This document shows, piece after piece, positions 20,212 to 60,970 of a stretch of DNA of 64,000 nt. Made by a program: the position numbers and the translations under genes. Position 1 is the first letter of the stretch, and the number at the start of each line of letters is the position of its first letter. The DNA lies in contig CALSUG010000008.1 of NCBI GenBank assembly GCA_943789475.1, positions 110,431 through 174,430 of the forward strand. Direction: 5' to 3'. The notes under the pieces are model-generated. The model was not told where the DNA came from. It ran no database searches and was given only the letters and a program-made list of their open reading frames with translations. This DNA comes from an uncultured Alphaproteobacteria bacterium. GTDB taxonomy: Bacteria; Pseudomonadota; Alphaproteobacteria; Micavibrionales; UBA1664.

Positions 20212-21630
20212 ATGAGCACAAAAACAAAAAAACAAATTTATAAACCAAAACCAATTAGTGGATTTCCAGAATGGTTACCTGAACAACGACTTGTTGAACA
20301 GCAATGGTTAGATCGTATTCGTCGTGTTTTTGAATCATACGGATACTGTTCAATAGAGACACCTGCCGCGGAAGAAATAGATGTTTTAACGGCCAAAGGT
20401 GAAACAGACAAAGAAATTTATACTTTAACGCGCTTACAAGCGGATGAAGATGATAAAAAGGAGGCTCGTATTGGCCTTCATTTTGATCAAACGGTACCTT
20501 TTGCACGTTATACAGCAGCGCATTTTAACGAACTTGTTTTTCCGTTTAAACGTTATGCCATGCAAAAGGTATGGCGCGGTGAACGTCCACAATTGGGACG
20601 TATGCGTGAATTTTACCAATGTGATATTGATGTCATCCACGTTGATAATCTTCCCCTTCATTTTGACGCCGAAATGCCAAAGGTGATTTACGAAGCATTA
20701 GAAGGATTAGATATTGGCCGTATTCAATTACGTATTTCAAATCGCAAAATATTATTTGGATTCTTACAACAGTACGGAATAGATGATCAAAACAAAATAA
20801 TCTTAATAACGCGCGCTGTAGATAAATTAGAAAAAATAGGAAAAGAAGAGGTTATTATTGAGATATTAGATGCTTTAGAAAGATATGACACTAATGATAA
20901 TCTTATAGCCGATGACGGTACTCCAACTGCAAACGTTTTGAATGGCTATGGTGAACAAAATAACAATATTATAGAATTCGCTCGCTCTTTTATTGATATA
21001 GCTGAACAAGAGTATAGATCTTCTGATGATTTAAAGGAAAAATTAACTAATAATGAAAATATAGATACAAGCTCTCCAATGATACAAGAGGGTATAGAAG
21101 AACTCTCTTTTGTGTTAGATGAATTATCTCACCTGCCTGATCATGCTGTTAAAGCCGACTTATCTATTGTACGTGGTCTGGATTACTACACAGGTACAGT
21201 GTATGAAACACAATTGCTTGATATTCCTGAATTTAAATCATCTGTATGTTCTGGCGGTCGGTATGATGATTTAGCGGGTTCGTATATCAATAAACATTTA
21301 CCCGGTGTTGGTATATCTATTGGATTTACACGATTGTTCGATGTTTTACGTCATAATGGGTATATAAAAAATACAAAAAAATGCCCAACGGATGTGTTGG
21401 TTGTTTTACCATCAGAAGATATGCGTGCAATCGCCAATGAAACAGCGCGTGCATTACGATCAAACGGACATAATGTTGAGGTGTATCATGCACCGCAAAA
21501 AATATCGAAACAAATCGGTTTTGCAGAAAAGAAAGGGATAAATTATGTATGGTTCCCTGATCTTAACGAGGTTAAAAACCTTCAAACAGGTGAACAATTA
21601 AAGACAGATCCTAAGATGTGGGAAAAATAA
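20212..21630 (+). CDS. hisS: histidine--tRNA ligase (long alphaproteobacterial type)
   Basis: 472 aa. GFPEWLPEQ N-terminus, class II motifs (KRYAMQKVWRGERPQLGRMREFYQCD, GGRYDDL, GVGISIGFTRL) and a C-terminal anticodon-binding domain. Confidence 0.9.
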   Translation: MSTKTKKQIYKPKPISGFPEWLPEQRLVEQQWLDRIRRVFESYGYCSIETPAAEEIDVLTAKGETDKEIYTLTRLQADEDDKKEARIGLHFDQTVPFARYTAAHFNELVFPFKRYAMQKVWRGERPQLGRMREFYQCDIDVIHVDNLPLHFDAEMPKVIYEALEGLDIGRIQLRISNRKILFGFLQQYGIDDQNKIILITRAVDKLEKIGKEEVIIEILDALERYDTNDNLIADDGTPTANVLNGYGEQNNNIIEFARSFIDIAEQEYRSSDDLKEKLTNNENIDTSSPMIQEGIEELSFVLDELSHLPDHAVKADLSIVRGLDYYTGTVYETQLLDIPEFKSSVCSGGRYDDLAGSYINKHLPGVGISIGFTRLFDVLRHNGYIKNTKKCPTDVLVVLPSEDMRAIANETARALRSNGHNVEVYHAPQKISKQIGFAEKKGINYVWFPDLNEVKNLQTGEQLKTDPKMWEK

Positions 21631-22517
21631 TGAGTCAAAAAAATACGAACATCCCAACGCAAGATGATTTAAATCGCAAAAAAATTAAATTGGCTCAAAG
21701 TGTATCGCCAACGTTATCTCATGTTCAGATCTCGATGTTATCTCTTGATCTCACTAGTTTGACAGGAAGTGAAACAGAGGCGGATATTACTGAATTGTGT
21801 GGCAAGGCAAGAAAAGGAAGTGTTGCTGCGGTTTGTGTGTATCCACAATATGTTGCACAGGCCGCAAAATTATTGCAAGGTTCGGAAATTGAAATTGCTA
21901 CGGTCATTAATTTTCCACATGGTGATATGACGAATGATGGTGAGGTTGCTACACCTGAAAATACAGAAAAATCAGTTGTAAATGCGATTGCCAATGGCGC
22001 AACAGAAATAGATATTGTCATTGATTATAAAAATTACATGAGAGAAGAGCACGCACGTTCATTGCTTCGCGCATGTAAAAAGGCATGTGGTGAGAATGCT
22101 AAGATGAAAGTTATTCTTGAAACTGGAACATTTGAATTTGAAGGGGATATTGAATGTCTTTCATCGATTGCAATTGAAGAGGGGGCCGATTTTATTAAAA
22201 CATCTACAGGTAAATATAGTGATCCCGAGTTTCCAGAAGTGGGTGGAGCAACATTTGAAGCTGTTTTAACGATGCTTGATGTTATTAAAAAATATCAAAA
22301 TAAACGTCCAGTAGGATTAAAAATATCAGGCGGTGTGAATGAACTTAATTTTGTGGGCTTTTTAGAGATAGCAAGGACAGAAATGAGTGATGCGTTTCTA
22401 TCACTAGACACATTCCGTATTGGTGCAAGTGGCCTATATGATTATTTAGATTCATCAATTAGAACAAAAGAGCCTGCCACAGACCATGTTAAAAAACATG
22501 GAATACTAAGTTATTAG
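21618..22517 (+). CDS. deoC: deoxyribose-phosphate aldolase
   Basis: ATVINFPHGD, EIDIVIDY, KVILETG and FIKTSTGK (Schiff-base Lys) are present. An alternative start at 30 forms a TAATG overlap with the hisS stop. Confidence 0.85.
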   Translation: MGKIMSQKNTNIPTQDDLNRKKIKLAQSVSPTLSHVQISMLSLDLTSLTGSETEADITELCGKARKGSVAAVCVYPQYVAQAAKLLQGSEIEIATVINFPHGDMTNDGEVATPENTEKSVVNAIANGATEIDIVIDYKNYMREEHARSLLRACKKACGENAKMKVILETGTFEFEGDIECLSSIAIEEGADFIKTSTGKYSDPEFPEVGGATFEAVLTMLDVIKKYQNKRPVGLKISGGVNELNFVGFLEIARTEMSDAFLSLDTFRIGASGLYDYLDSSIRTKEPATDHVKKHGILSY

Positions 22518-23236
22518 GCCGCCTTTAAATCGGAATAACGTGATACCCAATCGTTTGGTGTCATGGATGCAAATGGACCATCCTTTGATCGCCAATAAGC
22601 CAGAATTTGTGGGAATTGATTGAATGAATAATCACCCTCGGTCACCGCACGACGATCTAATGGAAATAGGCGTATGCCATCTAATTTTTCATGACGTTTT
22701 TTGTATTGATCGTTTGTAAGATAATCACGTAAAACCAATGATAACACCTTTGGATCATCCGTTTTTAGACGTTGAATGGCTTCTTCACGACGTTTCATAA
22801 TCATTTCTAGTGTAGAGCGTGCAACCTCGGCCATCGGTCCTTGCGTAATACGTGCAACGTAAATGGATCGTGCTAAATGATGAACTTGTGCTTGTGCCAT
22901 TTCCGGCATCCAAATAAGGGTTCCTGATTTCATATCTGCGACTTTATCAATATGGAAGCATTGGTGACAGAATATGCATGATGTTACTAAATTATCATCA
23001 GATGTATTTTTTTTGTTCCCATCACGTGCATGAACGAGGTGAAATTTTTGACTTTCGAATCCACAATATTGGCAAGCGTGTTGGTCACGCTCAAAAATTT
23101 TTTTTCGTGTATCTTCATCCGCGTTTGGATCAAACGAAGATGGGGCAGAAACCATACCGTCACTGCCCTGTCTTTTCGTGTTCTGTAATGCATCCACCGA
23201 TAGAGATAACTCTATCGGTAGTAAGTTATTTGACAT
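22514..23236 (-). CDS. icmJ: IcmJ/DotN-like protein (type IVB secretion system, zinc-binding)
   Basis: 240 aa. The blocks KIFERDQHACQYCGFES, NLVTSCIFCHQCFH, SGTLIWMPEMAQAQVHHL and IRLFPLDRR parallel what I remember of Legionella IcmJ (KIFQRDRYTCQFCGFQ, NLVTACCFCAQCFF, GTLIYLPELTQAELNSL, IRLLPSR). The start overlaps the upstream stop (TAATG). Confidence 0.78.
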   Translation of the reverse strand: MSNNLLPIELSLSVDALQNTKRQGSDGMVSAPSSFDPNADEDTRKKIFERDQHACQYCGFESQKFHLVHARDGNKKNTSDDNLVTSCIFCHQCFHIDKVADMKSGTLIWMPEMAQAQVHHLARSIYVARITQGPMAEVARSTLEMIMKRREEAIQRLKTDDPKVLSLVLRDYLTNDQYKKRHEKLDGIRLFPLDRRAVTEGDYSFNQFPQILAYWRSKDGPFASMTPNDWVSRYSDLKAA

Positions 23237-23619
23237 TAGAATGTTGGAGCCGTAATTTGACCAGTACCTAAAGTCCCTCCAGTACCTGCAGTGTCTTGAA
23301 TCATCTCCATAACAGGGCCTAAGGCCATTAAAATTCCACCAAATCCAAGTTTGGCCAATCCATTTTTCATTGCTGTTTGACCTGGATTTTCAACATGTTG
23401 TTTTAAGTTCACAACACCAAGTGCAGCCAAAGCAACTCCACCAAGAAGACTTACGTTTGTTACAGTGTTAATCCATCCGCCTGCAACGTTGTTGGACAAA
23501 TCTTTTGTGTATGTGTTAAATGCTGATGTTGCCAATGCATCAGACGAAAATCCAGTCATTGCACCAGTCATAATTGCGGCTGACATCAATTGTGTTTGTT
23601 TGTTTAAAAGTTTAAGCAT
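23236..23619 (-). CDS. icmD: IcmD/DotP-like small inner-membrane protein
   Basis: Start set at MLKLLNKQ (ATG at 23619), preceded by AAGGAGG. 127 aa. Two hydrophobic helices flank NLKQHVENPGQ. Size and position (between the icmC-like gene and icmJ) match Legionella IcmD. Confidence 0.55.
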   Translation of the reverse strand: MLKLLNKQTQLMSAAIMTGAMTGFSSDALATSAFNTYTKDLSNNVAGGWINTVTNVSLLGGVALAALGVVNLKQHVENPGQTAMKNGLAKLGFGGILMALGPVMEMIQDTAGTGGTLGTGQITAPTF

Positions 23620-23657
23620 AGTTTCCTCCTTGAATAAAATATGATCCATGCAAATCG

Positions 23658-24611
23658 TTAGTTAAATAGTACCCCAAAGCCAGAAATTCCCAAAGTATTT
23701 TGTATAATATTTGCGAATTGTCCGAAATTCACAAGAATTGCACCTGCAATTACATGTGATACCCCACCCATCATCGTCATTTGCTGATTTCCTTCTGCGA
23801 CGCCGCGAAGGACAAAGAAACCACGAATGATAGACAAAATTCCTACAATAATTAAAAAGGCTAAAACAGATACAACGACATTTTCGGCGTGTGCAGAGCC
23901 TGTGGCACCCATGGTGGCGCTTAATGCTAAAAAACTTACCTCTGTCATAGAGTCACGTCCGCCAAATAATGTTTCTGTTAATGTTCCTACAGATGGTGCG
24001 ACAGAGAATAAAACACCAGCTAATACGAATGTAGCAATTGTTCCTAAACCTGTTGGACCACGAGGCCCTTCTTGAGCTGTTTTTGTAAAGCGATGAACCG
24101 CAATGAGCATAAGTGCGGCACCTGCAACATAACAAAAGAACACCATCAATGTTGTAATTGGCCCATAAATATTGGACATGAAATTCATTAACATGCCATC
24201 TAAAGAACCTGTGGCAGATGCGCCTGTTGCGGCTGTCCACCCAATGTCTTGTGCGGCGTTGTGTTCTCCAAAAGTTTCCCAGACCACCGTTGACACGGTT
24301 GGTAATGTCATCATTAGTCCGCCAGTGAACAATAATTTTAAAGGGTCCGCTAGTGGAGTATTCTGTGGGCCAAACTCAGCATGATTTTTCAATTTGTATA
24401 CACCTAAGGCAACAAATAAAACACCAATTAAAACAGAAATGAATGCTATGAAATCAGGTAAATTTGCGGTTCCTGACATGAGTCTGTTAATCATGTCGCC
24501 AAGAGTGCCGCTGGCACTCATTGTTGCAGCAGGTGTTGCGCTAGCAAAAGCTGGTGAGGACAAGAGTATAGCCGTTAAAATTAGGCCAGTATTGATTATT
24601 TTTTTACTCAT
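23658..24611 (-). CDS. icmC: IcmC/DotE-like inner-membrane protein, expanded to three repeats
   Basis: 317 aa. A signal peptide (SSPAFASA) is followed by three copies of a TM - basic/polar loop - TM unit about 90 aa long. That unit is also the whole of the adjacent IcmD-like protein. Confidence 0.5.
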   Translation of the reverse strand: MSKKIINTGLILTAILLSSPAFASATPAATMSASGTLGDMINRLMSGTANLPDFIAFISVLIGVLFVALGVYKLKNHAEFGPQNTPLADPLKLLFTGGLMMTLPTVSTVVWETFGEHNAAQDIGWTAATGASATGSLDGMLMNFMSNIYGPITTLMVFFCYVAGAALMLIAVHRFTKTAQEGPRGPTGLGTIATFVLAGVLFSVAPSVGTLTETLFGGRDSMTEVSFLALSATMGATGSAHAENVVVSVLAFLIIVGILSIIRGFFVLRGVAEGNQQMTMMGGVSHVIAGAILVNFGQFANIIQNTLGISGFGVLFN

Positions 24612-24772
24612 TTAGTTACAAAAATCCTATTGTGTCTCTTTGGTTATTAAAACATAACATTGTCATACTATACAACAAAAACATCTTCGTTAATATGACA
24701 TAATATTGATTTAGTATGGTTTATCATATTTAAAAATTAGTTAAAATTCGAAATATTTATGAAAATTAATGG

Positions 24773-36343: not shown

Positions 36344-37027
36344 TTATGATAGGCACTCTACAAGAAAAAACATACCCGAATCTATACCTTGAAAATCAAT
36401 AGAATGATCTAAACCTTTGGTTTTGTATCCTGTAACAGGGTAATTTAACTTTTTTAACAAAGAGGTCGCTTCATTCCATTCTGCAGAAGGAACAACGACG
36501 TCCCCTGTTCCATGAATAAGATGGATTGGAGTATGTTTATTAACAGATGTTCGGGCGGCATCTTGATCAAGAAGCATTCCCGAATATCCTAATACACCTG
36601 CAAATGGTTCAGGAGATGTTAATGCGATATGTAATGCCATCATACAACCTTGTGAAAAACCACTTAGAACAAGACGGTCACGTTTTACATTATATTCTTG
36701 TGTTACAGCATTGATAAAACCATCGGTCATATCCGTTGTTTCTTGTATTCCCCGTGTCATTGCCTCTTTTGTGTATTCACTTAAAGAAAACCACTGCTTA
36801 CCAAAAGGAGATTCTTCACATTGTATCGGTGAATCTGGAGCAACAAAAACAACATTATTGAGGCGTTCTGTCCACATATCTGCAATAGAGATCAAATCAC
36901 GTCCATCGGCCCCATACCCATGGAATAGAATGATAACGTTATTTGGAGTCACATCGGCATCAGGCTCGATGACATAACAATTTAACTCTCCTATCTTCTT
37001 TTGCTGCATGGCCTTACGGTAACTCAA
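36344..37027 (-). CDS. phospholipase/carboxylesterase-family alpha/beta hydrolase
   Basis: 227 aa. HGYGADG, nucleophile elbow GFSQG, and HGTGDVVVP near the C-terminus. Confidence 0.8.
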   Translation of the reverse strand: MSYRKAMQQKKIGELNCYVIEPDADVTPNNVIILFHGYGADGRDLISIADMWTERLNNVVFVAPDSPIQCEESPFGKQWFSLSEYTKEAMTRGIQETTDMTDGFINAVTQEYNVKRDRLVLSGFSQGCMMALHIALTSPEPFAGVLGYSGMLLDQDAARTSVNKHTPIHLIHGTGDVVVPSAEWNEATSLLKKLNYPVTGYKTKGLDHSIDFQGIDSGMFFLVECLS

Positions 37028-37066
37028 GGCTTTTCACCTGTCAATTCAAAGGGTATAAAGGCATCA

Positions 37067-38143
37067 ATGTATTCAACAGCTGTTTATATCCATTGGCCAT
37101 ATTGCCTAAAAAAATGTCCGTATTGTGATTTTAATTCCCATGTAAAAGAACAAATTAATCATAATGATTGGCGATTGGCTTATGATCGTGAAATTGAACA
37201 TTATGCGAATATTCTTGGTAATCGATTAGTTACATCTGTATTTTTTGGTGGTGGAACACCAAGTTTGATGGAACCAGAAACGGTACAATATATTTTAGAA
37301 AAAATTCATGCGTGTTGGTCTATTGCAAATGACTGTGAGATTACATTAGAGGCGAATCCGACATCAATTGAAATACAAAAATTTAAAGAATTTTATGATG
37401 TCGGTGTTAACCGTGTATCGGTTGGTGTGCAATCATTGCGTGATGATCAATTAAGATTTTTGGGACGAGAGCATTCAGTATCCGAGGCTTTGAATGCATT
37501 GAAAATCGCGAATGATATTTTTGATCGTGTGTCATTTGATTTGATTTATGCACGGCCCGACCAAAACGATGGATGAATGGCGATGTGAATTAATGGAGGC
37601 ATTATCCTATGCCAAGGGACATATGTCATTGTATCAATTAACAATAGAAGATGGAACACAGTTTAAAACATTACGTGATAGTGGGACGATTGAAGGAGCT
37701 CAATTATGATATCGCGGGTGACATGTATTTAATGACGCAAGAAATGATGATCAAGGCCGGTATGCCGTCGTATGAAATTTCAAATTATGCAAGGATGGGG
37801 ACAAGAAAGTCAGCATAACCTGACTTATTGGCGATACAAAGATTATGTTGGCATCGGTCCTGGGGCACATGGTCGGTTAACACTAACTAATGGAGATAAA
37901 GTTGCAACGCGTACGCATAAGGCACCCGATGTATGGATGAATAACGTATTTGAAAATGGTCATGGCGCCAAACCATTTGAGGTGTTAAATACTCAAGATC
38001 AATTGGAAGAAGGGTTGATGATGGGGTTGAGGTTGCGTGAAGGGGTTGAGATGTCGGCATTACCGATAAACAAACTAAGCACATTGTTCGATAACGATTT
38101 TTTACGGTGTGAAAATGATCGTATTTTTTGTACCGCAAGATAA
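37067..38143 (+). pseudogene. hemW: radical SAM heme chaperone HemW (HemN-like), disrupted by three +1 frameshifts
   Basis: The N-terminal part has IHWPYCLKKCPYCDFNS (CxxxCxxC) and the C-terminal part has QESQHNLTYWRYKDYVGIGPGAHGR. Between about 37563 and 37801 the homologous reading (TMDEWRCELMEALSYAKGHMSLYQLTIEDGTQF..., then YDIAGDMYLMTQEMMIKAGMPSYEISNYAR) runs in the other two frames. In-frame stops lie at 37574, 37707 and 37816. Confidence 0.75.
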
Positions 38144-46029: not shown

Positions 46030-46116
46030 TAGCGATGATTCCTTTTTATTTTTTATAAGCGTAAGAATGTTTGAAAAAATATACAAGAAAATGAGTCTTA
46101 ATATCCGCAACAATTA

Positions 46117-46145
46117 TTGTGTATGTACTTATGTTGCGTTATACT
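46117..46145 (+). promoter_or_regulatory. sigma-70-type promoter for the tmRNA gene (TTGTGT-17 nt-TATACT)
   Basis: Read directly: -35 at 46117-46122, a 17-nt spacer, -10 at 46140-46145. Confidence 0.5.
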
Positions 46146-46154
46146 GTGGTTACC

Positions 46155-46495
46155 AAGCAATTGGTTATGACGCTAAACGTTGTTGCGGAATAGGCGTCGT
46201 GGACCCGGGGGCAGTACCCGGCGACTCCACCAAAAGCACATATAATTTGTGTGTTTTTATGGGGTCGAAACAGGATCGACACGCGTAATAAAGGTAATTT
46301 TCGGCGTTCGGGCAGATACCCCCGTATACAGGATCATTTTTTATAGATGCAAACGATAACTTTGCTCCTATGACTGCTGCTAACGACAATGGCACTATTG
46401 CTGCTGTTGCCGCTTAAGCGAGTCGCATAAATTCCTAGGGGTTTGAGTCTCTAGGTGGGGTTGGGGAGAGACCTCGCAACAGAACTCCCCATTTT
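46155..46495 (+). ncRNA. ssrA: two-piece (circularly permuted) tmRNA: acceptor piece to CCA at 46232, intervening segment, coding piece from GGGGTCG at 46261
   Basis: GGGGUCG (46261-46267) pairs with CGACUCC (46222-46228), including the G3-U alanine identity pair, and is followed by ACCA. The T-arm is CCGGG-GGCAGUA-CCCGG. The tag frame 46349-46417 encodes ANDNFAPMTAANDNGTIAAVAA plus a stop. A 3' hairpin GGGGAG...CTCCCC is followed by ATTTTCCTTTT. The 5' and 3' ends are approximate. Confidence 0.8.
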
Positions 46496-46526
46496 CCTTT
46501 TGTATAAATCGGGTACACTGTTTTTC

Positions 46527-48314
46527 ATGATGTTATCACATACATGGATTACCACGTTATTATGCGCCGCGCTGGGGTTGTTTTTGGTACAATTGCCCGA
46601 TTGGTCGTATATGGCTCATGGTGCAGGGTTTATTGTGTTATGGGTTATTTGTCTTTGTGGTGTATCACACAGTAAACATAATTTTTCTATCAATGAGTAT
46701 ACAGTTTTTGCATTCCTTTTCATCGGGATGTGCGTGTTATCGGTTGCGATGTCGAGCATAGCACATAGCAGCATATCTATATTGTCAACTTACCTCATTT
46801 TGCCAATAGTGATGATTTCTCTGAACGGAAGTATAAATCGTCGGTTTTTCTATAATACATTGCTAGCTTTAAGCGCTGGTTTAGGGGGGTATGCCCTGTA
46901 CCAATTCTACACGCAAACAGGACATTATAAAATTATAGCGAACGGTTCTTTTGCTAATCCAAACAGTTTGGCTGTCTTTTTGGGAGTAGGTTTCCTGATT
47001 GCATGGAATTTATTTTTAACGACTAAAAATAAAATTCAATTGTCATTATATGGTGTAATTACTATGCTGGTATGGGCAGGAATTGTTACAACATCTGCAC
47101 GTGGAGTGATGTTGGGATTGCCGATCGTGATCGCATTCGTATCGTTGATGTATATAAATTATATGCCAAAAAAAGAAATTTTACTAAAAGTAATGCTTCT
47201 TTCGATGGGGGGTGTGGCTATATTTTTATCCGTGAAAATGTTTGTATCAGCAGAAATGTTTTCTCAAACATTGAATATACATTCAGGATCCGCTGGACCA
47301 CGGTTTAATATTTGGCGCGGTGTTGTTGATGCAATTCAGTCTACCAATCCTGTTTTTGGTAATGGTATAGGAACGTTTAAGGACGTTTACACGCACTACC
47401 GCTTGCCAACGGATCCTGCTTCAGGATTACATGGTCACAATGATATTCTCCATTTGATACTGGAAATGGGATTGCTTGTCCTTATACCGTTCACCATTTT
47501 AGCATTTACCGTGGTAAAGAGTTTTGTCGTGGCAAGAGAAGAGAATAAATCACGATTATTATTGCCGCTCTCGTTGTTTGTTTTTATAGCGGGGTGCGCG
47601 ATGTTCACCACGGTTATTTTATTACCGTCATTATGGCTGATAACGGGCATCATATTGATCGATTATATGAAACATGATGGTGAAAATGCGGTGGTGAAAA
47701 AAACATATATGAACAAAATAGCGATAGTTTGTTTGATTGTTTTAATAGCGTTACAAGCGCAAAAAATTGTTGAAACGCGCACGATGATTGATTTGAAAAA
47801 TGCATCTAATCAATCGGATTTGAATGATTTTCGGGCGCAAATAAATAAGATGGATATGGTGTCGATGGGGTCGCATCCTGTCGTTCCTATATTTCAAGCG
47901 TCACTTTTGATGAGTTTATGGGATGCAAAAATGATTACCGCACCTCAATCGGATGTAGTGAGCGAATTGAATGGGTATTTAGATCAATCAAAATCCCTCA
48001 ATCCATGGAATGTTGAAACGTTATATTATCGCGGTCATGTTTTAAAACGCGAGGGTGATATTGCAGGGGCAACATCAGCATGGGAAAATGTTTTAAAAAT
48101 TGATCCATCATATGTGTCCGCACGCATTGATTTGGTAAATTACATGACACGTACAGAAGACGCGTACATTATTTTAAAATCGGGTTTGTATCTCAAATAC
48201 TGGAAACAAAATCCACAGAAATTATTTGGCATGATTATGGTCGAAGCTAAAAAACAAGGCGATACAGAAACATATGAGGATGCGGAAGAGCGTTTGAAAG
48301 AGCTCCTCCGTTAA
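46527..48314 (+). CDS. O-antigen ligase (Wzy_C) family membrane protein with a C-terminal TPR-like domain
   Basis: Start set at MMLSHTWITT (46527), because the upstream part of the track ORF overlaps the tmRNA. About 12 TM helices; the periplasmic loop has GIGTFKDVY...GLHGHNDILHLILEMGL. The soluble tail has TPR-like repeats. Confidence 0.72.
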   Translation: MMLSHTWITTLLCAALGLFLVQLPDWSYMAHGAGFIVLWVICLCGVSHSKHNFSINEYTVFAFLFIGMCVLSVAMSSIAHSSISILSTYLILPIVMISLNGSINRRFFYNTLLALSAGLGGYALYQFYTQTGHYKIIANGSFANPNSLAVFLGVGFLIAWNLFLTTKNKIQLSLYGVITMLVWAGIVTTSARGVMLGLPIVIAFVSLMYINYMPKKEILLKVMLLSMGGVAIFLSVKMFVSAEMFSQTLNIHSGSAGPRFNIWRGVVDAIQSTNPVFGNGIGTFKDVYTHYRLPTDPASGLHGHNDILHLILEMGLLVLIPFTILAFTVVKSFVVAREENKSRLLLPLSLFVFIAGCAMFTTVILLPSLWLITGIILIDYMKHDGENAVVKKTYMNKIAIVCLIVLIALQAQKIVETRTMIDLKNASNQSDLNDFRAQINKMDMVSMGSHPVVPIFQASLLMSLWDAKMITAPQSDVVSELNGYLDQSKSLNPWNVETLYYRGHVLKREGDIAGATSAWENVLKIDPSYVSARIDLVNYMTRTEDAYIILKSGLYLKYWKQNPQKLFGMIMVEAKKQGDTETYEDAEERLKELLR

Positions 48315-48318
48315 GAAA

Positions 48319-50799
<2,481 letters not shown>

Positions 50800-50809
50800 T
50801 CACTATATC

Positions 50810-50837
50810 AAAAAGCCAGATATTCCCTAGCTTTTTT
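50810..50837 (-). terminator. rho-independent terminator between recF and gyrB
   Basis: The minus strand reads AAAAAGCUAG-GGAAUAU-CUGGCUUUUU, a 10-bp stem with one G-U pair that is a mismatch on the plus strand, ending in a U-run. Confidence 0.5.
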
Positions 50838-50853
50838 GTGATTTTTTTAATGT

Positions 50854-51990
50854 TTATTCACAATGGGAAAGAAGGTTGTCCTGAATCGTAATTCTTTGCT
50901 TATTTTGAATGGATGAAAATGCCGTTTCATCTTGTCCCGTGAGCCATATTTGACCACCGAAATCATTGAGAATTTCAAATAGAGAATCACGTTTTGTAGC
51001 GTCAAAATGCGCACATACCTCGTCAAATAATAGTACAGGCGGTACTCCGTAACGTTTTTCTACCATTTGCGCGTGCGCCAAGATGATCGTTGTTAAGAGC
51101 GCTTTTTGTTCACCGGTTGAACATTGCGCAGCATTGACGTTTTTTTCGGTATAGGTTGCAACCATATCGGTGCGTGTGATGCCAAAATGGGTTCGGCCAA
51201 TTTGGCCATCAACATCGCGCATATTTTCAAATTTTTCACGGGCGTAATCTTCGGCCTCTAAGGCTGATTTATTTGTAATGGCGGTCTCTAAATCACCGTG
51301 TAAGTTCAGCTGTGCAATTGGAAAATTTTTGAAAAAATCATTGTCGATGATGTGTTGTAATTTTTGGATTGTTTCCGATCTTGCAATGGATATGGCGATG
51401 GATGTTTCGGCCATGATGTTTTCTAGCCCACTCAGCCATGTAGCATTCGCGATCATGTTTTTTTCGTGCGCTTGTTTTAGGATGCTTAATCTTTCACGTG
51501 TGGCCTTTTCCATGCGCGTCATGCGTCCAACGTGTGCAGGATCAAATGTGGCGACCAAGCGATCTAAAAACCGCCTACGTTCGGATGATGATTGTAAAAA
51601 CAATCCATCCATTTGTGGTGTTAACCACATGGTGCGTAGAATATCACCAAGGTCAGATTGATTTTTAATCGTATCGCCATCGGCGCGGATAATTTTTTTT
51701 GATGGGTTGTCTGGATTACGTCCAACGCCTAAATGCGTTTTATCGTCATCATGATCCGTAATTTTCCCTGATACGGCCCACGGTGTTGGGCATGTTTGTG
51801 ATTGGCAATCATTAACGCTTGCTCCACGTAATCCACGACCGGGAGATAGAAGGCTTATTCCTTCCAAACAGTTGGTTTTACCTGCGCCATTATCACCGAT
51901 GAGGACAATAAATTGGTTGTTTAAACCGTTTATGGACGTGGAATTATAATTCCGAAAACCAGTGAGAGATAATGAAGATAAATACGCCAT
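50854..51990 (-). CDS. recF: DNA replication and repair protein RecF
   Basis: 378 aa. GDNGAGKTNCLEGISLL Walker A, the SMC-like signature STGEQKALL, and Walker B LLFDEV. Confidence 0.92.
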   Translation of the reverse strand: MAYLSSLSLTGFRNYNSTSINGLNNQFIVLIGDNGAGKTNCLEGISLLSPGRGLRGASVNDCQSQTCPTPWAVSGKITDHDDDKTHLGVGRNPDNPSKKIIRADGDTIKNQSDLGDILRTMWLTPQMDGLFLQSSSERRRFLDRLVATFDPAHVGRMTRMEKATRERLSILKQAHEKNMIANATWLSGLENIMAETSIAISIARSETIQKLQHIIDNDFFKNFPIAQLNLHGDLETAITNKSALEAEDYAREKFENMRDVDGQIGRTHFGITRTDMVATYTEKNVNAAQCSTGEQKALLTTIILAHAQMVEKRYGVPPVLLFDEVCAHFDATKRDSLFEILNDFGGQIWLTGQDETAFSSIQNKQRITIQDNLLSHCE

Positions 51991-52035
51991 GTGTTGGGTA
52001 TTTTAGAGAGTTAAATATTGAATGGATAGTAGCAA

Positions 52036-52473
52036 TTATAAAGAGGCCACAAGAGCTTTTGGTAATGTGTGTTCTGGTCGCAAGTTTGTTGCGATAAAAT
52101 TTTCGACGAAACGAATAACACGACCAAAATTTCCAGATGATTTACTAAGCGGTGTCTCCATGACGAATATATTTTGGTTTTCCTGATTTTGATATTTTGT
52201 GATTGTAATTTCAAAAAATTCACCAAATTTTTCTCTATATTCGGGGTCTGCGACATCGATTTCGAGTGTTATGCGATTATTTTTTTGTTCTTTATCAGGA
52301 TATGCTGAAAATTTAGGTGTTGGATTTTTTGTAAATCCTATATCCATTAGGTGGGTGCGAATATCGCCAATGGTACGTATTTCATGCTGTCTAAAGGCTG
52401 TTTGAATATTATTATCAGGGCGTGCTGATGTCGTAGATTTTTTAAACGCATTTAATACAACAACATCACCCAT
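52036..52473 (-). CDS. hypothetical protein
   Basis: 145-aa ORF occupying the position where dnaN is often found upstream of recF. No motif recognised. Confidence 0.4.
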   Translation of the reverse strand: MGDVVVLNAFKKSTTSARPDNNIQTAFRQHEIRTIGDIRTHLMDIGFTKNPTPKFSAYPDKEQKNNRITLEIDVADPEYREKFGEFFEITITKYQNQENQNIFVMETPLSKSSGNFGRVIRFVENFIATNLRPEHTLPKALVASL

Positions 52474-52523
52474 AATTTATTTTTAGTCCTTTTATTTTTA
52501 TTAGATTAGAAAAATAATTAAAT

Positions 52524-52919
52524 TTAACACGTAAGAATAGGTAACGCAGATGCTCTGCGACCAAGAATGCGGCCGCAAATCTGTTGTACTTGTCCAATTA
52601 CTTTATCTCTTTTTGCTTCTTTTTCTAATGTTTTGGCTTCTTCGAAGGCTGCTTGAGCTTTTCTGTAGTTCTCATTTTTTTGAGAAGCTGCTTTGCGTTT
52701 TTCTCTGATAATTTGTGCTCGAGGTTTTCCTAAATAAGTGTCACTAACATTTAAGGCGTTTTGTGCGTCTTGTTTTAGGGTGCCATGAGCGTTAGACAGC
52801 CTGTAAGATATACGCCCTTTTTCTTGTAAGGCTTGTGCAAAATCTGTTTTAATAGATGCGTTTTCTAATCGACTTGCCCCTGGAGTGCCTTCGATTAATC
52901 CGATACTGTTTAGTGCCAT
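52524..52919 (-). CDS. hypothetical protein (K/E/A-rich, probably helical)
   Basis: The track ORF starts at a GTG at 52931. I prefer the ATG at 52919 (MALNSIG), which is preceded by GGTGGA. No motif recognised. Confidence 0.4.
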   Translation of the reverse strand: MALNSIGLIEGTPGASRLENASIKTDFAQALQEKGRISYRLSNAHGTLKQDAQNALNVSDTYLGKPRAQIIREKRKAASQKNENYRKAQAAFEEAKTLEKEAKRDKVIGQVQQICGRILGRRASALPILTC

Positions 52920-52979
52920 AATTTTTTCCACCGTTTTTATTTTATAAAAGCAGATGAAATTATGTCATGTCAATTAAAT

Positions 52980-53345
52980 TTACTTAATAACTTTTAACTT
53001 GCCTGACTTTTTTGTGCCGATTTTACCAATTTCACGGAAAATATTGATGGTTTCGAGGAAGTTTTCAGATCGAAATATCTGTTTTTGACCATCAAACACG
53101 CGATAAAAGTCTTTGTTTTTGGATTTTGTGCGGGAAATAGAATAAATAACTGCCATGGCTGTCCCATTCCCACGCTCAACAACGCAAAATGTTGTTTGAT
53201 TTTTGTCGGATGTTATGGCGTAATCTTTCCACCCTTTATTCAATACACCTTCGGCATAGGCGGCCAAGACCTGCCTTAATTGCCCATGGGTAAACACGCA
53301 TGAATGAACACCACTTAATCCTGTTGACGGAAATTTTTCTGTCAT
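52980..53345 (-). CDS. DUF2794-like protein
   Basis: Start set at MTEKFPSTG (ATG at 53345). FTHGQLRQVLAAYAEGVLNKGWKDYAI...FCVVERGNG...IYSISR fits my recollection of alphaproteobacterial DUF2794. Confidence 0.6.
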   Translation of the reverse strand: MTEKFPSTGLSGVHSCVFTHGQLRQVLAAYAEGVLNKGWKDYAITSDKNQTTFCVVERGNGTAMAVIYSISRTKSKNKDFYRVFDGQKQIFRSENFLETINIFREIGKIGTKKSGKLKVIK

Positions 53346-53386
53346 TACACTCAGTCTAACAAAAAATAGATGAAAAAGCGACAAAA

Positions 53387-54106
53387 ATGACTGATAAGAA
53401 TAAGAGTACTCCTGAAGAAGATTTGGCAGCTGAACTTCTTTTGAAAGAAGCAGATGACACATTACGCCAAGAAGAGTTGCAAAAATTGTGGGAAGAATGG
53501 GGCGCAACGATCATCGGGGTTGCTCTTATGGTTGTTTTTGGAACGATGATTGGTGTCGGTTGGAAAAGTTGGCGTACATCTGTTTATGAAAGCCAAACAC
53601 AGGCGTTAATTACAATGCAACAAAAGGGGCCTGCATCCTTGGCAACGCAAGGTGATGAATTGTCAGGATCATATGATGCGATTGCAAAAATGATTGCGGC
53701 GGGTCAATTGGTCAATACGGATGGCGCGTCGTCTAAAATTACATCATCGACAATTCATAATTTAATGGTCGATGCCAGCGATGGTGGATTGCCAAAATAT
53801 TATGATGTCATGGCCGAGTGGACAAAATTGAGAACACGATTCGATGCAACAAAAAATGACGATAGGCATGAAATTGTTGAAGAGATGTTGGATGTAGCGG
53901 ACAGTCGAAATAATCCATTTTTCCTGATTATGACGGTTGAAGGCGCGATGATGTACGCATCGATGGAATCATATGATAAGGCGTTGGATATTTTAAATGA
54001 TTTGGAAGGCGAGCAGTTAGATACAGTTCCATCATTAAAATCTGAAGTGGATAGTTATCGTCAAATTTATCAGGCGAAATTAAATAAAGGCGAGGATAAA
54101 TCATAA
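53387..54106 (+). CDS. YfgM-like membrane-anchored TPR-like protein
   Basis: 239 aa with one TM (IIGVALMVVFGTMIGVGW) and a helical periplasmic domain. It lies immediately upstream of bamB, as is usual for this family. Confidence 0.55.
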   Translation: MTDKNKSTPEEDLAAELLLKEADDTLRQEELQKLWEEWGATIIGVALMVVFGTMIGVGWKSWRTSVYESQTQALITMQQKGPASLATQGDELSGSYDAIAKMIAAGQLVNTDGASSKITSSTIHNLMVDASDGGLPKYYDVMAEWTKLRTRFDATKNDDRHEIVEEMLDVADSRNNPFFLIMTVEGAMMYASMESYDKALDILNDLEGEQLDTVPSLKSEVDSYRQIYQAKLNKGEDKS

Positions 54107-55500
54107 TGAAATTAAAAGCGTTTTTATTAGCATCTGTTTTAATGATATCGGCATGTGGCACGATTGATAGCTTGCTTGGACCAGAAGTCGAAAAATCAAC
54201 ATTAGAAGGTGACCGTTTGTCCCTTTATGATTTTGAAAAAACATTACAGCAAGATCCGAATACTCAATTTGGTCTTGATGGCAGTGAAAATAAAAATGTG
54301 GTGTCGTTACCACAATCTTTACAAGGTGGAGAAGACACGGATATTAATCTTGTTTCCTCATGGGAAAATGAATTTTGGCCACAGGTCGGTGGGTATCCTA
54401 ATCATGCTATGAAACATTTGACGTTCACAAAGGACGAACCCAAACGTCAATGGTCAACATCTATCGGTGCAGGTGGTGATGATCGTCTGCCATTGGTATC
54501 TGCGCCAATTATGGCAGATGGTAAAGTATTTGTGTTGAATAATGGTGCCGAGGTCGTCGCGCTGGACGCAAGCACGGGTGCAAAATTATGGGATGCTAAT
54601 GTCATTAAATTTGGTGAAGACGAAACGGTTATCGGTGGTGGAATCGCATTTTCGGGTGGTATGATTTTTGTCACCAACGGGTTTAATGAGGTTATTGCGC
54701 TGAACCCTGATAATGGATCTGTATTATGGCGTACAGAAACAAAAACGCCTATTCGCGCGGCACCGTCGGCTATTCCTGGTCGTGTGTTTGTTGTAACAAT
54801 GGATAATCAAACACTGGCGCTAAACAGTAAAAACGGTGAAGTGTTGTGGAAACACCGTGGGTTAGACAGTGATGCTGGTGTATTGGGCGCATCAACACCT
54901 GCAATCTCACGTGATGCGATTATCACGGCCTATGGATCGGGTGAAATTTACGCACTTCAAATTGATACTGGTGTTGAATTGTGGAGTGAAAATTTATCTC
55001 CGCTTGCACGTGTTGCGGGGCGCACTGCCTTGTCTGATATCCGAGCATTGCCAGTTATTGACGGTGGTGTTGTGTATGCGGTGTCATATACAAATCGTAT
55101 GAATGCAATTGATGCACGTACGGGAAAAATTATATGGCAGGCCCCAATCGGCAGTGCATCAACGCCATGGGTATCAGGAAACCGTATTTATGTCGTTGAA
55201 TCGCAAGGCACATTAGTGTCGTTGGATCGTAAGGATGGCCACGTCATGTGGCAAATCGCGCTACCACGTTATGAAGATGTGAGTGATCGTGAAGGAATTA
55301 TCCATTGGAACGGACCAATGCTTGCCGGTGGAAATCTGATTGTTTTTGGTTCTCATGGTGAGGCACATATGTATAGCCCAATTGATGGATCATTGTTGAA
55401 TGAGTGGGATATTGATTCTGATGTATTCGTAATGCCAGCCTTGGCAAAAGGCGGTCTATATACTTTGGGTAATGAAGGGCGCGTTAAGGCGTGGAGATAG
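54106..55500 (+). CDS. bamB: outer membrane protein assembly factor BamB (PQQ-like beta-propeller lipoprotein)
   Basis: 464 aa. Lipobox MISAC, and repeated xxG(x)lxAlDaxtGxxlW blades (ALDASTGAKLW, ALNPDNGSVLW, ALNSKNGEVLW, AIDARTGKIIW, SLDRKDGHVMW). Confidence 0.85.
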   Translation: MKLKAFLLASVLMISACGTIDSLLGPEVEKSTLEGDRLSLYDFEKTLQQDPNTQFGLDGSENKNVVSLPQSLQGGEDTDINLVSSWENEFWPQVGGYPNHAMKHLTFTKDEPKRQWSTSIGAGGDDRLPLVSAPIMADGKVFVLNNGAEVVALDASTGAKLWDANVIKFGEDETVIGGGIAFSGGMIFVTNGFNEVIALNPDNGSVLWRTETKTPIRAAPSAIPGRVFVVTMDNQTLALNSKNGEVLWKHRGLDSDAGVLGASTPAISRDAIITAYGSGEIYALQIDTGVELWSENLSPLARVAGRTALSDIRALPVIDGGVVYAVSYTNRMNAIDARTGKIIWQAPIGSASTPWVSGNRIYVVESQGTLVSLDRKDGHVMWQIALPRYEDVSDREGIIHWNGPMLAGGNLIVFGSHGEAHMYSPIDGSLLNEWDIDSDVFVMPALAKGGLYTLGNEGRVKAWR

Positions 55501-55513
55501 GAAATCAGTATCG

Positions 55514-56824
55514 ATGATTCAAAATGTTCCTGAATTTTCCGTTTCTGATATTTCTCGTGCGTTAAAACAAACGGTTGAAACATCGTTTTCTCATGTACGT
55601 GTTCGTGGTGAATTGTCCCGTGTGACATTGGCAAAGTCAGGTCATTTCTATAGTGATCTTAAGGATGAATCGTCCGTTTTGAATATTGTGTGTTGGCGTG
55701 GCTCTGTTCAAAAATTGTCGATAAAGCCAGAAGAAGGCATGGAGGTTATATGCATTGGGCGTATGACAACATTCCCGGGATCATCACGATATCAATTGGT
55801 TGTTGAATCAATGGAATTGGCGGGCGAAGGTGCCTTACTTAAATTACTAGAGGATCGTAAGAAAAAATTAGCCGCCGAAGGCTTATTCGATGAAGATCGC
55901 AAAATACCACTTCCATTTTTACCAAAAACAATCGGGGTTGTGACATCACCAACGGGTGCGGTTATCCGTGATATTATTCACCGCGTATCCGATCGCTTTC
56001 CATGCCGCGTGATGGTATGGCCGGTACAGGTGCAAGGCGTTGGAGCTGATGTACAAATTACACGGGGGATAGAAGGGTTTAATAAAGCGAGCGATCGCAA
56101 TCGCCCTGATCTTATTATTGTGGCACGTGGTGGTGGAAGCATTGAAGATCTCATGGCGTTTAACGAGGAAAATGTTGTTCGTGCGGTCGCTGCATCAACC
56201 ATTCCTGTTATATCCGCGGTTGGACATGAAACGGATACAACGCTAATTGATTATGTGTCTGACCGTCGTGCACCTACGCCCACGGGAGCGGCGGAAATGG
56301 CAGTACCTGTTATCGATAATATTTGGGCGACGATGGATGACTATCGAGCTCGTTTGAGGCAGTCTTTAAAACGTTTAATTGAAAATTTATCACAAAATTT
56401 GCATGTTTCATCACGCGTATTGGATCATCCGCATCGTCAGATCGAACCGTTGGAACAAAGATATGATGCGCTTTCACACAAACTTGATAATGCATTTATG
56501 CGTAATGTTGATGTTCAGGATAAAAAATTACTATCGCTTGGTGGACGGTTAAAAACACCACAAGCCGTTTTGGATCAAGGACAATTGTCTTTGGATAACT
56601 TATTCGAACGAATGAAACAGGCCGGTACGCGTATTATTCCTGAACGCGCGGATAAAGTCAGTGGACTTGATCGTATGTTGGAAACATTATCTTATAAAAG
56701 CATTCTTAATCGCGGATATGCGGTTTTACATGACGAGGGTGGGCAATTGTTAGATGGTGTAGACGCGGTTCAATCCGCGGAAAAAATAAAAATAACCGTC
56801 AAGGATGGATCGGCAACACGTTAA
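55514..56824 (+). CDS. xseA: exodeoxyribonuclease VII large subunit
   Basis: Start set at MIQNVPEFSVSDIS (ATG at 55514). OB-fold VRVRGELSRV...GHFYSDLKDE; the catalytic region is IGVVTSPTGAVIRDI...ARGGGSIEDLMAFN...GHETDTTL. Confidence 0.9.
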   Translation: MIQNVPEFSVSDISRALKQTVETSFSHVRVRGELSRVTLAKSGHFYSDLKDESSVLNIVCWRGSVQKLSIKPEEGMEVICIGRMTTFPGSSRYQLVVESMELAGEGALLKLLEDRKKKLAAEGLFDEDRKIPLPFLPKTIGVVTSPTGAVIRDIIHRVSDRFPCRVMVWPVQVQGVGADVQITRGIEGFNKASDRNRPDLIIVARGGGSIEDLMAFNEENVVRAVAASTIPVISAVGHETDTTLIDYVSDRRAPTPTGAAEMAVPVIDNIWATMDDYRARLRQSLKRLIENLSQNLHVSSRVLDHPHRQIEPLEQRYDALSHKLDNAFMRNVDVQDKKLLSLGGRLKTPQAVLDQGQLSLDNLFERMKQAGTRIIPERADKVSGLDRMLETLSYKSILNRGYAVLHDEGGQLLDGVDAVQSAEKIKITVKDGSATR

Positions 56825-56867
56825 TTATCAATTGTTTCACGTTCATAAATCACTTATATATGCGAAG

Positions 56868-57668
56868 ATGATAAATAAAATGCAAATTGCAACACAGGCG
56901 CAAAATTTTTGCCAAATTATCGGACAAATGGTCATTGGTGTTTGTTCAATGGTTGGAAAAATATCATTCTTTATGTTTGATACGGTTCGTCATGCGTTGA
57001 CACCGCCATGGTATGGATCACAAATATTAAAGCAATTTTTATCAATTGGTTTTTTCTCTTTGGCTGTGGTCGGAATGACGGCGTTATTTTCGGGAATGGT
57101 GATTGCGTTGCAATCATATACAGGTTTTGCACGATTTAATGCCGAGGGTGCGGTGGCGAATGTTGTTGTTTTAACAATTACACGTGAGTTAGCTCCTGTT
57201 CTTGCTGGGTTAATGTTGGCGGCGCGCGTTGGTGCATCAATCGCAGCGGAAATTGGTACAATGCGTGTTACAGAACAAATTGATGCATTGCGCACATTGA
57301 ATGTTAATCCGATGAAATATTTGGTTGTTCCACGTGTCATGGCGGGTGTGGTGATGTTACCTGCGTTGGTCTTTATTGCCGATATTATTGGTGTGATGGG
57401 GGGATGGCTTGTTGGGGTGTATGTGTTGGATTTTTCATCAGCATCTTACCTCAATCAAACAATTGATTTTGTGCAATTTAATGACGTTTTTTCAGGTCTT
57501 GTAAAGGCGTGTATGTTTGGTTTAATCGTAACCGTTATGGGATGTTACCACGGTTATAATTCTGGTCGTGGTGCGCAGGGTGTTGGTTTGGCCACGACAA
57601 ACGCGGTTGTTTCATCCGCGATTTTGATTTTGATATTTAACTATGTTCTAACGCAGGCTTTATTTTAA
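56868..57668 (+). CDS. mlaE: phospholipid ABC transporter permease MlaE
   Basis: Start set at MINKMQ (56868), after the xseA stop. ITRELAPVLAGLMLAARVGASIAAEIGTMRVTEQIDAL is the MlaE signature region. Confidence 0.85.
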   Translation: MINKMQIATQAQNFCQIIGQMVIGVCSMVGKISFFMFDTVRHALTPPWYGSQILKQFLSIGFFSLAVVGMTALFSGMVIALQSYTGFARFNAEGAVANVVVLTITRELAPVLAGLMLAARVGASIAAEIGTMRVTEQIDALRTLNVNPMKYLVVPRVMAGVVMLPALVFIADIIGVMGGWLVGVYVLDFSSASYLNQTIDFVQFNDVFSGLVKACMFGLIVTVMGCYHGYNSGRGAQGVGLATTNAVVSSAILILIFNYVLTQALF

Positions 57669-58444
57669 TGACTGATTATAAAATTCAAATGAAGGGTGTT
57701 TGTAAATCGTTTGGGGATAAACATATCCTGCGCGGTGTCGATTTGAATATCGAAAAAGGAACATCGATGGTCATTATTGGTGGATCAGGAACAGGAAAAT
57801 CAGTCACATTAAAATGTGTTTTGGGGTTGCTTACACCTGACAGTGGATCAATCCTGATTGATGGTAAAGAAACGGTTGGCATGGGTGAACAAGACCGTGA
57901 CACCATGATGAAAAAATTTGGTATGTTGTTCCAAGGTGGGGCCTTGTTTGATTCACTGCCAGTTTGGGAAAATGTTGCCTTTGGTCTTATTCATGCAGAA
58001 AATATGAGTAAGGATGAAGCCCGCCCGATCGCGATTGAAAAATTACAAGCCGTGGGTTTAGGATCAAAGGTTGCTGATTTATTTCCGGCTGAATTATCAG
58101 GAGGAATGCAAAAACGTGTTTCATTGGCACGTGCGATTGCAACAAATCCGGAAATTATCTTTTTTGATGAACCAACAACGGGGCTTGACCCTATTATGGC
58201 GGATGTCATTAATGATTTGATTGTTCAATGTGTAAAGGATTTAGGTGCAACGGCCTTAACCATTACACATGATATGGCATCGGCACGTAAAATCGCAGAT
58301 CATGTATCAATGATTTATGAAGGTGAGATGATTTGGAGCGATCATATCAAAAAACTGGATAAATCAGGCAATGATTACGTTGATCAATTTATTCATGGGC
58401 GTGCGGATGGACCAATCTCTAAACATTCTGCATTGGCCGATTAA
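57668..58444 (+). CDS. mlaF: phospholipid ABC transporter ATP-binding protein MlaF
   Basis: 258 aa with GGSGTGKSV, LSGGMQKRVSLARA and IIFFDEPTTGLDP. Confidence 0.9.
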   Translation: MTDYKIQMKGVCKSFGDKHILRGVDLNIEKGTSMVIIGGSGTGKSVTLKCVLGLLTPDSGSILIDGKETVGMGEQDRDTMMKKFGMLFQGGALFDSLPVWENVAFGLIHAENMSKDEARPIAIEKLQAVGLGSKVADLFPAELSGGMQKRVSLARAIATNPEIIFFDEPTTGLDPIMADVINDLIVQCVKDLGATALTITHDMASARKIADHVSMIYEGEMIWSDHIKKLDKSGNDYVDQFIHGRADGPISKHSALAD

Positions 58445-58486
58445 CAGGTCTTTCTTTTGCCATACGATTTCATTAACCTTTAAGGC

Positions 58487-60946: not shown

Positions 60947-60970
60947 ACACCTTTATTTAAAAGGGAAGTA

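Follow-up and report, generated by a model that had tools for sequence, protein, structure and literature searches.

A chromosomal icmC-icmD-icmJ block set apart from icmB, a probable piece of a dispersed Dot/Icm-type secretion system in a Micavibrio-like alphaproteobacterium

The window analysed here is the whole stretch of 64,000 nucleotides (64 kb) taken from contig CALSUG010000008.1 of assembly GCA_943789475.1, an uncultured alphaproteobacterium of the Micavibrionales (UBA1664). It carries three closely spaced minus-strand genes whose products are of the IcmC, IcmD, and IcmJ types of the Dot/Icm-type type IVB secretion system (T4BSS), followed directly by deoC (Table 1). An earlier sequence-only reading of the window had reported three coupled open reading frames (ORFs) on this strand, and all three are there. 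The icmD start is most likely Met11, as the 127-aa product in that reading implied, and two features of the sequence favour it over the 137-aa ORF: the ATG at 23619 is preceded by a strong Shine-Dalgarno sequence (AAGGAGG, 23631-23625), and the alignment of IcmD homologs begins at residue 11 of the longer ORF. The icmD stop and the icmJ start overlap as TAATG at 23236. At the other end, icmJ and deoC, whose ORFs end at 22514 and 22517, share the 4-nt convergent overlap that had been described. The GC content of the block (0.385-0.392) showed no anomaly against the window mean of 0.395. The intergenic region upstream of icmC is the likely promoter region of the three-gene unit. A weak sigma-70-like match was located in it at 24727-24700 (consensus match only); promoter-like sites were fewer than in shuffled sequence, so the match is no evidence of function.

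Table 1. Coordinates of the block and its borders within the window.
Feature	Position	Strand	Remarks
icmC/dotE/traQ-like gene	23658..24611	-	317-aa product, polytopic inner-membrane protein
icmD/dotP/traR-like gene	23236..23619	-	127 aa from Met11; ORF reaches 23649 (137 aa)
icmJ/dotN/traT-like gene	22514..23236	-	240-aa product
Putative rearrangement breakpoint	22514..22517	.	icmJ stop overlaps convergent deoC stop
AT-rich intergenic region, 161 nt	24612..24772	-	Between Wzc-like gene and icmC

By its profile and structure-database matches the 240-aa protein is a clear IcmJ/DotN homolog, as the sequence-only reading had proposed. It matched the NCBIfam model NF038221 (IcmJ_DotN_IVB) with an E-value of 3.4e-28 (98.6 bits, profile positions 32-185 of 205), and phmmer against the PDB aligned residues 43-193 with residues 28-181 of L. 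pneumophila DotN (chains 5x1h, 5x42, 6sz9, and 7ovb; E 2e-20). The four blocks quoted earlier in support of the assignment, KIFERDQHACQYCGFES, NLVTSCIFCHQCFH, GTLIWMPEMAQAQVHHL, and IRLFPLDRR, are all found within the 240-aa translation. In a 26-sequence alignment C55, C58, and C90 were invariant, C87 and C93 were at least 90% conserved, and N82 was nearly invariant. All five cysteines align with cysteines of Legionella DotN, and we take the cluster C-x2-C ... C-x2-C-x2-C to be the zinc-binding core of the DotN structure. The gene neighbours are those of an icmJ gene, with icmD immediately upstream in the window and icmB immediately downstream in seven loci of relatives (L002, L005, L014, L017, L018, L019, and L021). 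Weak HNH and IscB matches are best taken as a reflection of an HNH-like zinc-finger scaffold. A reading of IcmJ as an HNH nuclease was rejected because the residues at positions 69 and 91, where a nuclease would have its catalytic-type His, are not constant among family members. Many alphaproteobacterial IcmJ proteins, that of the window included, have His at both positions, and Legionella DotN has N/A there. The alphaproteobacterial proteins also share a strongly conserved C-terminal extension (LFPLDRR...FNQFPQILAYWRSKDGPF), which in the window covers 22514-22660 (residues 193-240) and lies beyond the region alignable to Legionella DotN.

IcmC matched the NCBIfam model NF033883, for TraQ of IncI1 plasmids, over residues 140-309 (E 8.6e-11, 42 bits, profile positions 5-174 of 175), and the same profile recognised its orthologs in L002 (E 5e-15) and L008 (E 6e-6). 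The N-terminal part (residues 28-114) matched Pfam DUF6750 with an E-value of 7.6e-8. A hidden Markov model (HMM) of the IcmD family resolved three VirB2-like/DUF6750-type hairpins in IcmC (residues 1-122, 128-222, and 245-309), and on these matches the protein joins one IcmD-like module to a two-module core of the TraQ type. Kyte-Doolittle analysis predicted five hydrophobic segments, and a PDB sequence search with IcmC gave no match. The gene lies directly upstream of icmD, a position that has its equivalent in the MPF_I plasmid used for comparison, Serratia NZ_MT039180. The order on this plasmid is DotI/IcmL, DotH/IcmK, TraO, a hypothetical protein, TraQ, a DUF6750 protein, TraT, the TraU region, TraW, TraX, and DotA/TraY. 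Since the DUF6750 protein occupies the TraR position there, DUF6750 is the family of the TraR/IcmD position. The order icmC-icmD-icmJ thus corresponds to traQ-traR-traT, as had been noted from the window sequence.

The assignment of IcmD was reached through its family. A representative library contained 222 IcmD homologs; DUF6750 was matched by 22 of 59 stand-alone homologs (best E 1.4e-8), and PF04956 weakly by 4 of 59 (best E 5.7e-4). The HMM from IcmD homologs found the plasmid protein at the TraR position (E 3.5e-5) as well as TraQ (E 2.4e-5), and hhalign gave an E-value of 8e-4 at a probability of 24%. The 137-aa protein itself had no tblastn match in plasmids and no match in the PDB. IcmD is paralogous to the N-terminal module of IcmC (32% identity, E 5e-8), which agrees with the mutual homology of TraQ and TraR in MPF_I, two proteins related indirectly and distantly to the VirB2 pilin by a profile-profile link (Guglielmini 2014, PMC4027160). 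The correspondence of TraQ to DotE was taken from PMC6112013. Together with gene position, the TraQ and DUF6750 matches support the earlier IcmC-type and IcmD-type naming of the 317-aa and 127-aa proteins. In the IcmD sequence a leader precedes a helix-loop-helix hairpin whose loop carries the conserved motif K-x-H-V-E-N-P, and an AlphaFold2 model (mean predicted local distance difference test, pLDDT, 74) placed helices at residues 3-32, 44-87, and 94-121. When this model was compared with the PDB by Foldseek, no match reached an E-value below 0.6 and the first 50 contained no pilin; a two-helix hairpin is too generic for such a search.

The number of modules differs among the IcmC proteins: the IcmD-family HMM counted three in the window and in L008, and four to six in L021, L002, and L005. 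The DUF6750/VirB2-related hairpin thus occurs as tandem arrays within single polypeptides, with 3-6 modules in Micavibrio-type IcmC (genes at L002 7783-9522, L005 7301-9490, and L021 8359-9570). In the 1414-aa protein P0276, up to 12 stretches were matched by the IcmD search. We know of no description of such 'poly-pilin-like' tandem-module proteins.

A search for IcmJ homologs returned 1,422 clusters at E ≤1e-3. Many came from 'Micavibrio sp.', Rhodospirillales, or unclassified alphaproteobacterial metagenome-assembled genomes (MAGs), in some cases from contigs as long as about 2 Mb, and many are already named IcmJ/DotN by JGI and NCBI. Needham et al. (2022, PMC9418006) detected the type IV secretion system (T4SS) class pT4SSi in seven marine Micavibrionales. 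The rarity implied by the sequence-only reading was therefore overstated, and this T4BSS is lineage-wide in Micavibrio-like Alphaproteobacteria.

The gene order of these relatives forms a series. Distant relatives (about 50-55% identity; L002, L005, and L019 are canonical) show dotI-dotH-dotG-X-icmC-icmD-icmJ-icmB, then a gene of 165-223 aa and an aldo/keto reductase (AKR) gene, and the canonical order was also present in most of the 80 DotI loci from metagenome contigs. The clade of the window (69-79% identical in IcmJ, with records titled 'uncultured Micavibrio sp.' or 'Micavibrio sp. UBA1664' at NCBI) shows Wzc-icmC-icmD-icmJ-icmB-165aa-AKR in L017, L018, and L021, with no dotIHG within 10 kb. 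On the cut contig of L014 the part icmJ-icmB-165-AKR is visible. In L008 and L020 the pair of icmB and the 165-aa gene was inverted independently. The icmJ-icmB spacer of the clade relatives measures 60-170 nt. In the window, Wzc-icmC-icmD-icmJ is followed by deoC.

The gene of about 1000 aa next to icmJ was identified as icmB/dotO by the JGI and NCBI names of its homologs and by its matches to the TraU-family region in 3,784 plasmids. NCBIfam, Pfam, and PDB sequence searches gave faint VirB4/TraC matches only and contained no usable DotO/IcmB model. Proteins of the IcmB family occur on many plasmids, including alphaproteobacterial megaplasmids; for a homolog on a Bosea plasmid the surrounding locus was uninformative. 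The window IcmJ is 53-92% identical to the Micavibrio-type chromosomal family and at most 34% identical to any plasmid TraT.

Two further gene groups accompany these loci. The gene of 165-223 aa has no family match, always follows icmB, and has moved with it through every rearrangement (L012 13021-13518; L008 2880-3377, minus strand; L002 13860-14531); it may be an unrecognised T4BSS component. Immediately upstream of dotI, and divergent from it, Micavibrio-type loci carry two to five tandem paralogs of about 360-500 aa (minus strand; L002 22-2505, L059 4052-9757, and L112 3261-9018). They had no precomputed Pfam match, the L002 copies had no NCBIfam match, and the 448-aa copy had no PDB match; possibly they encode components or substrates of the T4BSS that are peculiar to this lineage. 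A reading of the L002 448-aa gene upstream of dotI as DotM was dropped, as this identity was not detectable by PDB sequence search.

The sequence-only reading was correct that the ATPase gene is missing downstream of icmJ, and an intact icmB was found elsewhere in the same sample. The contig L012 (contig_22790 of ENA sample ERZ10646672, the sample of the window) encodes an IcmB of 1002 aa that is 88% identical to that of L014, in the order HIT-family gene, icmB, 165-aa gene, AKR. L012 has a GC content of 0.381 (window 0.395), and its tetranucleotide correlation with the window was 0.981. The corresponding values were 0.990 for the window's own locus, 0.985 for the sister species, 0.967 for L008, and 0.924 for L014. 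The window and L012 hold complementary pieces of the ancestral flanks, the Wzc side in the window and the 165-aa/AKR side in L012, and the breakpoint therefore falls within the 60-170-nt icmJ-icmB spacer. From sample, composition, and flanks we infer a single source genome for both contigs. In L012 (7605-14583), icmB lies 48 nt behind same-strand acetyltransferase, M29 peptidase, and HIT genes, and it may be co-transcribed with these housekeeping genes since the split.

The split is shared by a sister species (IcmJ 92% identical). Its locus, Wzc-icmC(316)-icmD(138)-icmJ(240) with deoC next, was recovered repeatedly, on at least 17 contigs spread over several metagenomes, one of them labelled marine, and a HIT-icmB-165-AKR locus in another sample is 85.7% identical to L012 at the nucleotide level. 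As the arrangement is identical in both species, the split is old relative to their divergence. Selection was estimated between the window and the sister species as the ratio of nonsynonymous to synonymous substitution rates (dN/dS; Nei-Gojobori method, dS 0.34-0.84). Values of 0.064 for icmC, 0.099 for icmD, and 0.057 for icmJ were obtained, with 0.03-0.19 for flanking genes, and neither species has a truncated copy of any of the three ORFs. The estimates indicate that both halves are still under strong constraint. The deoC gene that abuts the breakpoint (21618-22517) is 65% identical to the sister-species copy at the protein level with a dN/dS of 0.19, and neighbouring genes are 85-95% identical; this divergence suggests relaxed constraint or replacement of deoC.

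The remainder of the window is alphaproteobacterial core chromosome. It contains a permuted alpha_tmRNA (237 bits), the families NDUFA12, DUF2155, MlaD, and DUF2794, and the housekeeping genes dnaA, recF, gyrB, rpoN, lptA/B/C, clpB, pheST, and a PBP1A gene; the lineage hallmarks listed earlier (two-piece tmRNA, NDUFA12, DUF2155, and DUF2794) were all recovered by family scans. The earlier statement that the 64 kb hold no further T4BSS core gene was borne out. A tblastn search with every L002, L005, and L008 ORF of 100 aa or more found no other T4BSS gene, its matches being the three block genes and housekeeping genes only, and Pfam and NCBIfam scans of the remaining window ORFs found no T4BSS family. 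The same scans detected no relaxase, integrase, or plasmid gene in the window. Twelve window ORFs had no family match, and the suggestion that nearby orphan genes encode effectors is without support.

These results fit best, and with good confidence, a functional sub-operon of a dispersed chromosomal Dot/Icm-type T4BSS (pT4SSi) in a marine low-GC Micavibrio-like alphaproteobacterium. The ancestral order would have been dotI-dotH-dotG-X-icmC-icmD-icmJ-icmB. In the clade of the window the unit icmC-D-J-B-165aa would already have been detached from dotIHG, and another rearrangement, in the ancestor that the window species shares with its sister, would have cut the icmJ-icmB spacer. The outcome would be Wzc-icmCDJ beside deoC and icmB-165aa-AKR behind the HIT-family gene on another contig. 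The three proteins are probably made together from a single transcript, and the trio would act in trans with IcmB and a core complex encoded elsewhere. By transfer of the role from Legionella, IcmJ would serve the coupling complex of DotL and DotM as its zinc-finger adaptor. For IcmC and IcmD, the role transferred from Legionella and IncI work would be that of VirB2-related hairpin proteins in the inner membrane that belong to the translocation apparatus. Because relatives have DotI, DotH, and DotG, we infer that the remainder of the machine is present in the window genome.

Comparison with known systems places the block more closely. The order icmC(dotE)-icmD(dotP)-icmJ(dotN)-icmB(dotO) is that of Legionella Dot/Icm region II, and relatives of the window species keep the full icmL-K-E-G-C-D-J-B series. 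As in Legionella, IcmC and IcmD are small, hydrophobic, and of the inner-membrane type, and the IcmJ core and its Cys cluster are those of DotN. The differences are that the host is an alphaproteobacterium, that icmB stands at another locus, that IcmC is longer (317 aa) owing to an extra N-terminal IcmD-like module, and that IcmJ has about 45 extra C-terminal residues with the conserved FNQFPQILAYWRSKDGPF motif. Legionella IcmC has about 190 aa. The genes icmGCDJBF were reportedly required for macrophage killing in the work of Purcell and Shuman from 1998. In Legionella, DotN has its second-largest interface with DotL, through the DotL C-terminal tail, and it also contacts DotM, DotZ, and DotY in the effector-recruiting coupling complex (PMC7280309). 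The DotM-DotN interface mutant M1 abolished intracellular growth, and mutations of the DotZ-DotN interface reduced growth as much as the deletion of dotZ (PMC7280309).

The IncI/MPF_I transfer genes traQ-traR-(traS)-traT-traU of R64 agree with icmC-icmD-icmJ-icmB in order and, on the matches given above, in families. R64 cannot conjugate without traQ, traR, and traT (PMC6112013). The window locus differs in being chromosomal, without relaxase context, and only about 26-35% identical, and it probably serves protein secretion rather than conjugation. The pT4SSi of marine Micavibrionales (Needham et al. 2022, PMC9418006) shares both lineage and protein families with the window (IcmJ 53-92%). The window species and its sister differ from it by the broken icmJ-icmB junction, with the halves on different contigs. 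Dot/Icm-type systems in marine Micavibrionales and proteins publicly named IcmJ/DotN were thus already known. The new detail is the precise icmJ|icmB split and its conservation in two species; no publication describing this split was found.

Three other explanations were weighed. After leaving icmB, the trio could have become a stand-alone IcmC-IcmD-IcmJ membrane module, repurposed and independent of any secretion machine. It is tight, translationally coupled, and provided with its own upstream intergenic region, and it is conserved as an isolated trio in two species and, independently, in L008, with no further T4BSS gene within 64 kb. However, the same sample and the sister lineage both retain icmB together with its 165-aa partner in intact form, all other relatives hold the trio inside a T4BSS cluster, and DotN in Legionella is built into the DotL-DotM complex. 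The split of an operon alone does not imply a changed function, and we regard repurposing as improbable.

A fragment of an integrated MPF_I (IncI-like) conjugative element, with no part in protein secretion, is very improbable. The matches of the three proteins to TraQ, TraR, and TraT of MPF_I plasmids and the spread of IcmB-family proteins over plasmids and alphaproteobacterial megaplasmids would suit such an origin, but the block sits at uniform GC in a core-chromosome context with dnaA, recF, and gyrB, and no relaxase, oriT, integrase, or plasmid context was found in the window. The locus is vertically conserved across the clade with housekeeping flanks, its IcmJ is far nearer to the Micavibrio-type chromosomal family than to plasmid TraT, and the Micavibrionales systems were classed as relaxase-less pT4SSi by Needham et al. 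(PMC9418006). A decaying remnant of a T4BSS lost after rearrangement is scarcely credible: the block does end exactly before the ATPase gene with no other T4BSS gene in the window, but three full-length ORFs persist in both species at a dN/dS equal to that of housekeeping neighbours, and the 1002-aa IcmB is intact. The sequence-only reading had offered three options. Of these, the dispersed functional T4BSS is strengthened by the intact icmB in the sample and the dN/dS of 0.06-0.10, and the decayed remnant is contradicted by the same ratios and by the split arrangement kept in the sister species.

Several points weigh against a functional dispersed T4BSS. None of DotG/H/I, DotC/D, DotL/M, or DotA/B was demonstrated in this particular genome, and a DotH search of metagenome contigs gave no match on a contig of the window's MAG or of its IcmB clade. 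Two candidates were rejected here. L059, which has a split-type low-GC look, was considered as the dot locus of the window lineage, and its tetranucleotide correlation with the window was just 0.81; P0433, considered as the DotH of the window genome, belongs to a different assembly and a canonical cluster. The link between L012 and the window consists of shared sample, composition, and complementary synteny and not of physical continuity, as the NCBI contigs differ (379,666 bp for the window and 292,723 bp for icmB). The pT4SSi class as called by MacSyFinder comprises IcmB plus at least six accessory genes and no relaxase; here IcmB is in the same sample, and the accessory genes shown are IcmC, IcmD, and IcmJ. 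At the protein level, IcmJ scored 1.4 bits below the curated NCBIfam equivalog cut-off of 100 bits, an annotation threshold that leaves its homology beyond doubt. The 42 bits of the TraQ match of IcmC are well below the cut-off of 80, and the 127-aa protein had no direct Pfam or NCBIfam match. For cultured M. aeruginosavorus ARL-13, the genome paper reports that a T4SS was not in evidence (PMC3189940); the system is therefore not shared by all 'Micavibrio'.

On the preferred reading, that of a dispersed T4BSS, the apparent icmCDJ orphan would be one piece of a dispersed secretion system, ordinary rather than an oddity. The operon junction break is documented precisely, with both halves seemingly still under selection, and it calls for caution with tools that call secretion systems by gene co-localisation. 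Micavibrio-like bacteria are relatives of epibiotic predators of bacteria. A more speculative extension, which we consider rather unlikely, is that the T4BSS, passed on vertically and kept by purifying selection, belongs to the chromosomes of a large Micavibrio-like radiation and could inject effectors into bacterial prey or protist hosts, in place of the classical role in intracellular pathogens, and that IcmC, as an unusual tandem fusion of 3-12 VirB2-pilin-like modules, might form a lineage-specific conduit. In reviews, the T4BSS figures as characteristic of early-branching Gammaproteobacteria that live inside cells (PMC11338181, PMC8896642). Dot/Icm-type machinery is abundant in environmental Micavibrio-like Alphaproteobacteria despite this Legionellales-type intracellular association, and knowledge of the substrates and targets of the Micavibrio-like systems would inform ideas on where the T4BSS came from and how broad its ecological range is.

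Some observations concern other parts of the window. A radical-SAM domain ORF (37001-37576) and a HemN_C domain ORF (37772-38143) stand in tandem about 200 nt apart, and the pair looks like a split HemN/HemW-type gene resulting from a frameshift, a pseudogene, or an assembly indel. The HisS-like gene is a single 472-aa ORF in the window (20212-21630) and is divided into 356 and 112 aa in the ENA contig L001 (2445-3864), which is 99.99% identical to the window; the sister-species gene encodes 432 aa. An indel error in one of the two assemblies is the likely cause. For the Wzy_C/O-antigen-ligase-like gene, the longest ORF (46455-48314) begins within the permuted alpha-tmRNA (46113-46493), and the true start of this gene therefore lies further downstream. 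The genes gyrB, recF, and dnaA are grouped on the minus strand at 48319-62410, a neighbourhood that is usually near the chromosomal replication origin.

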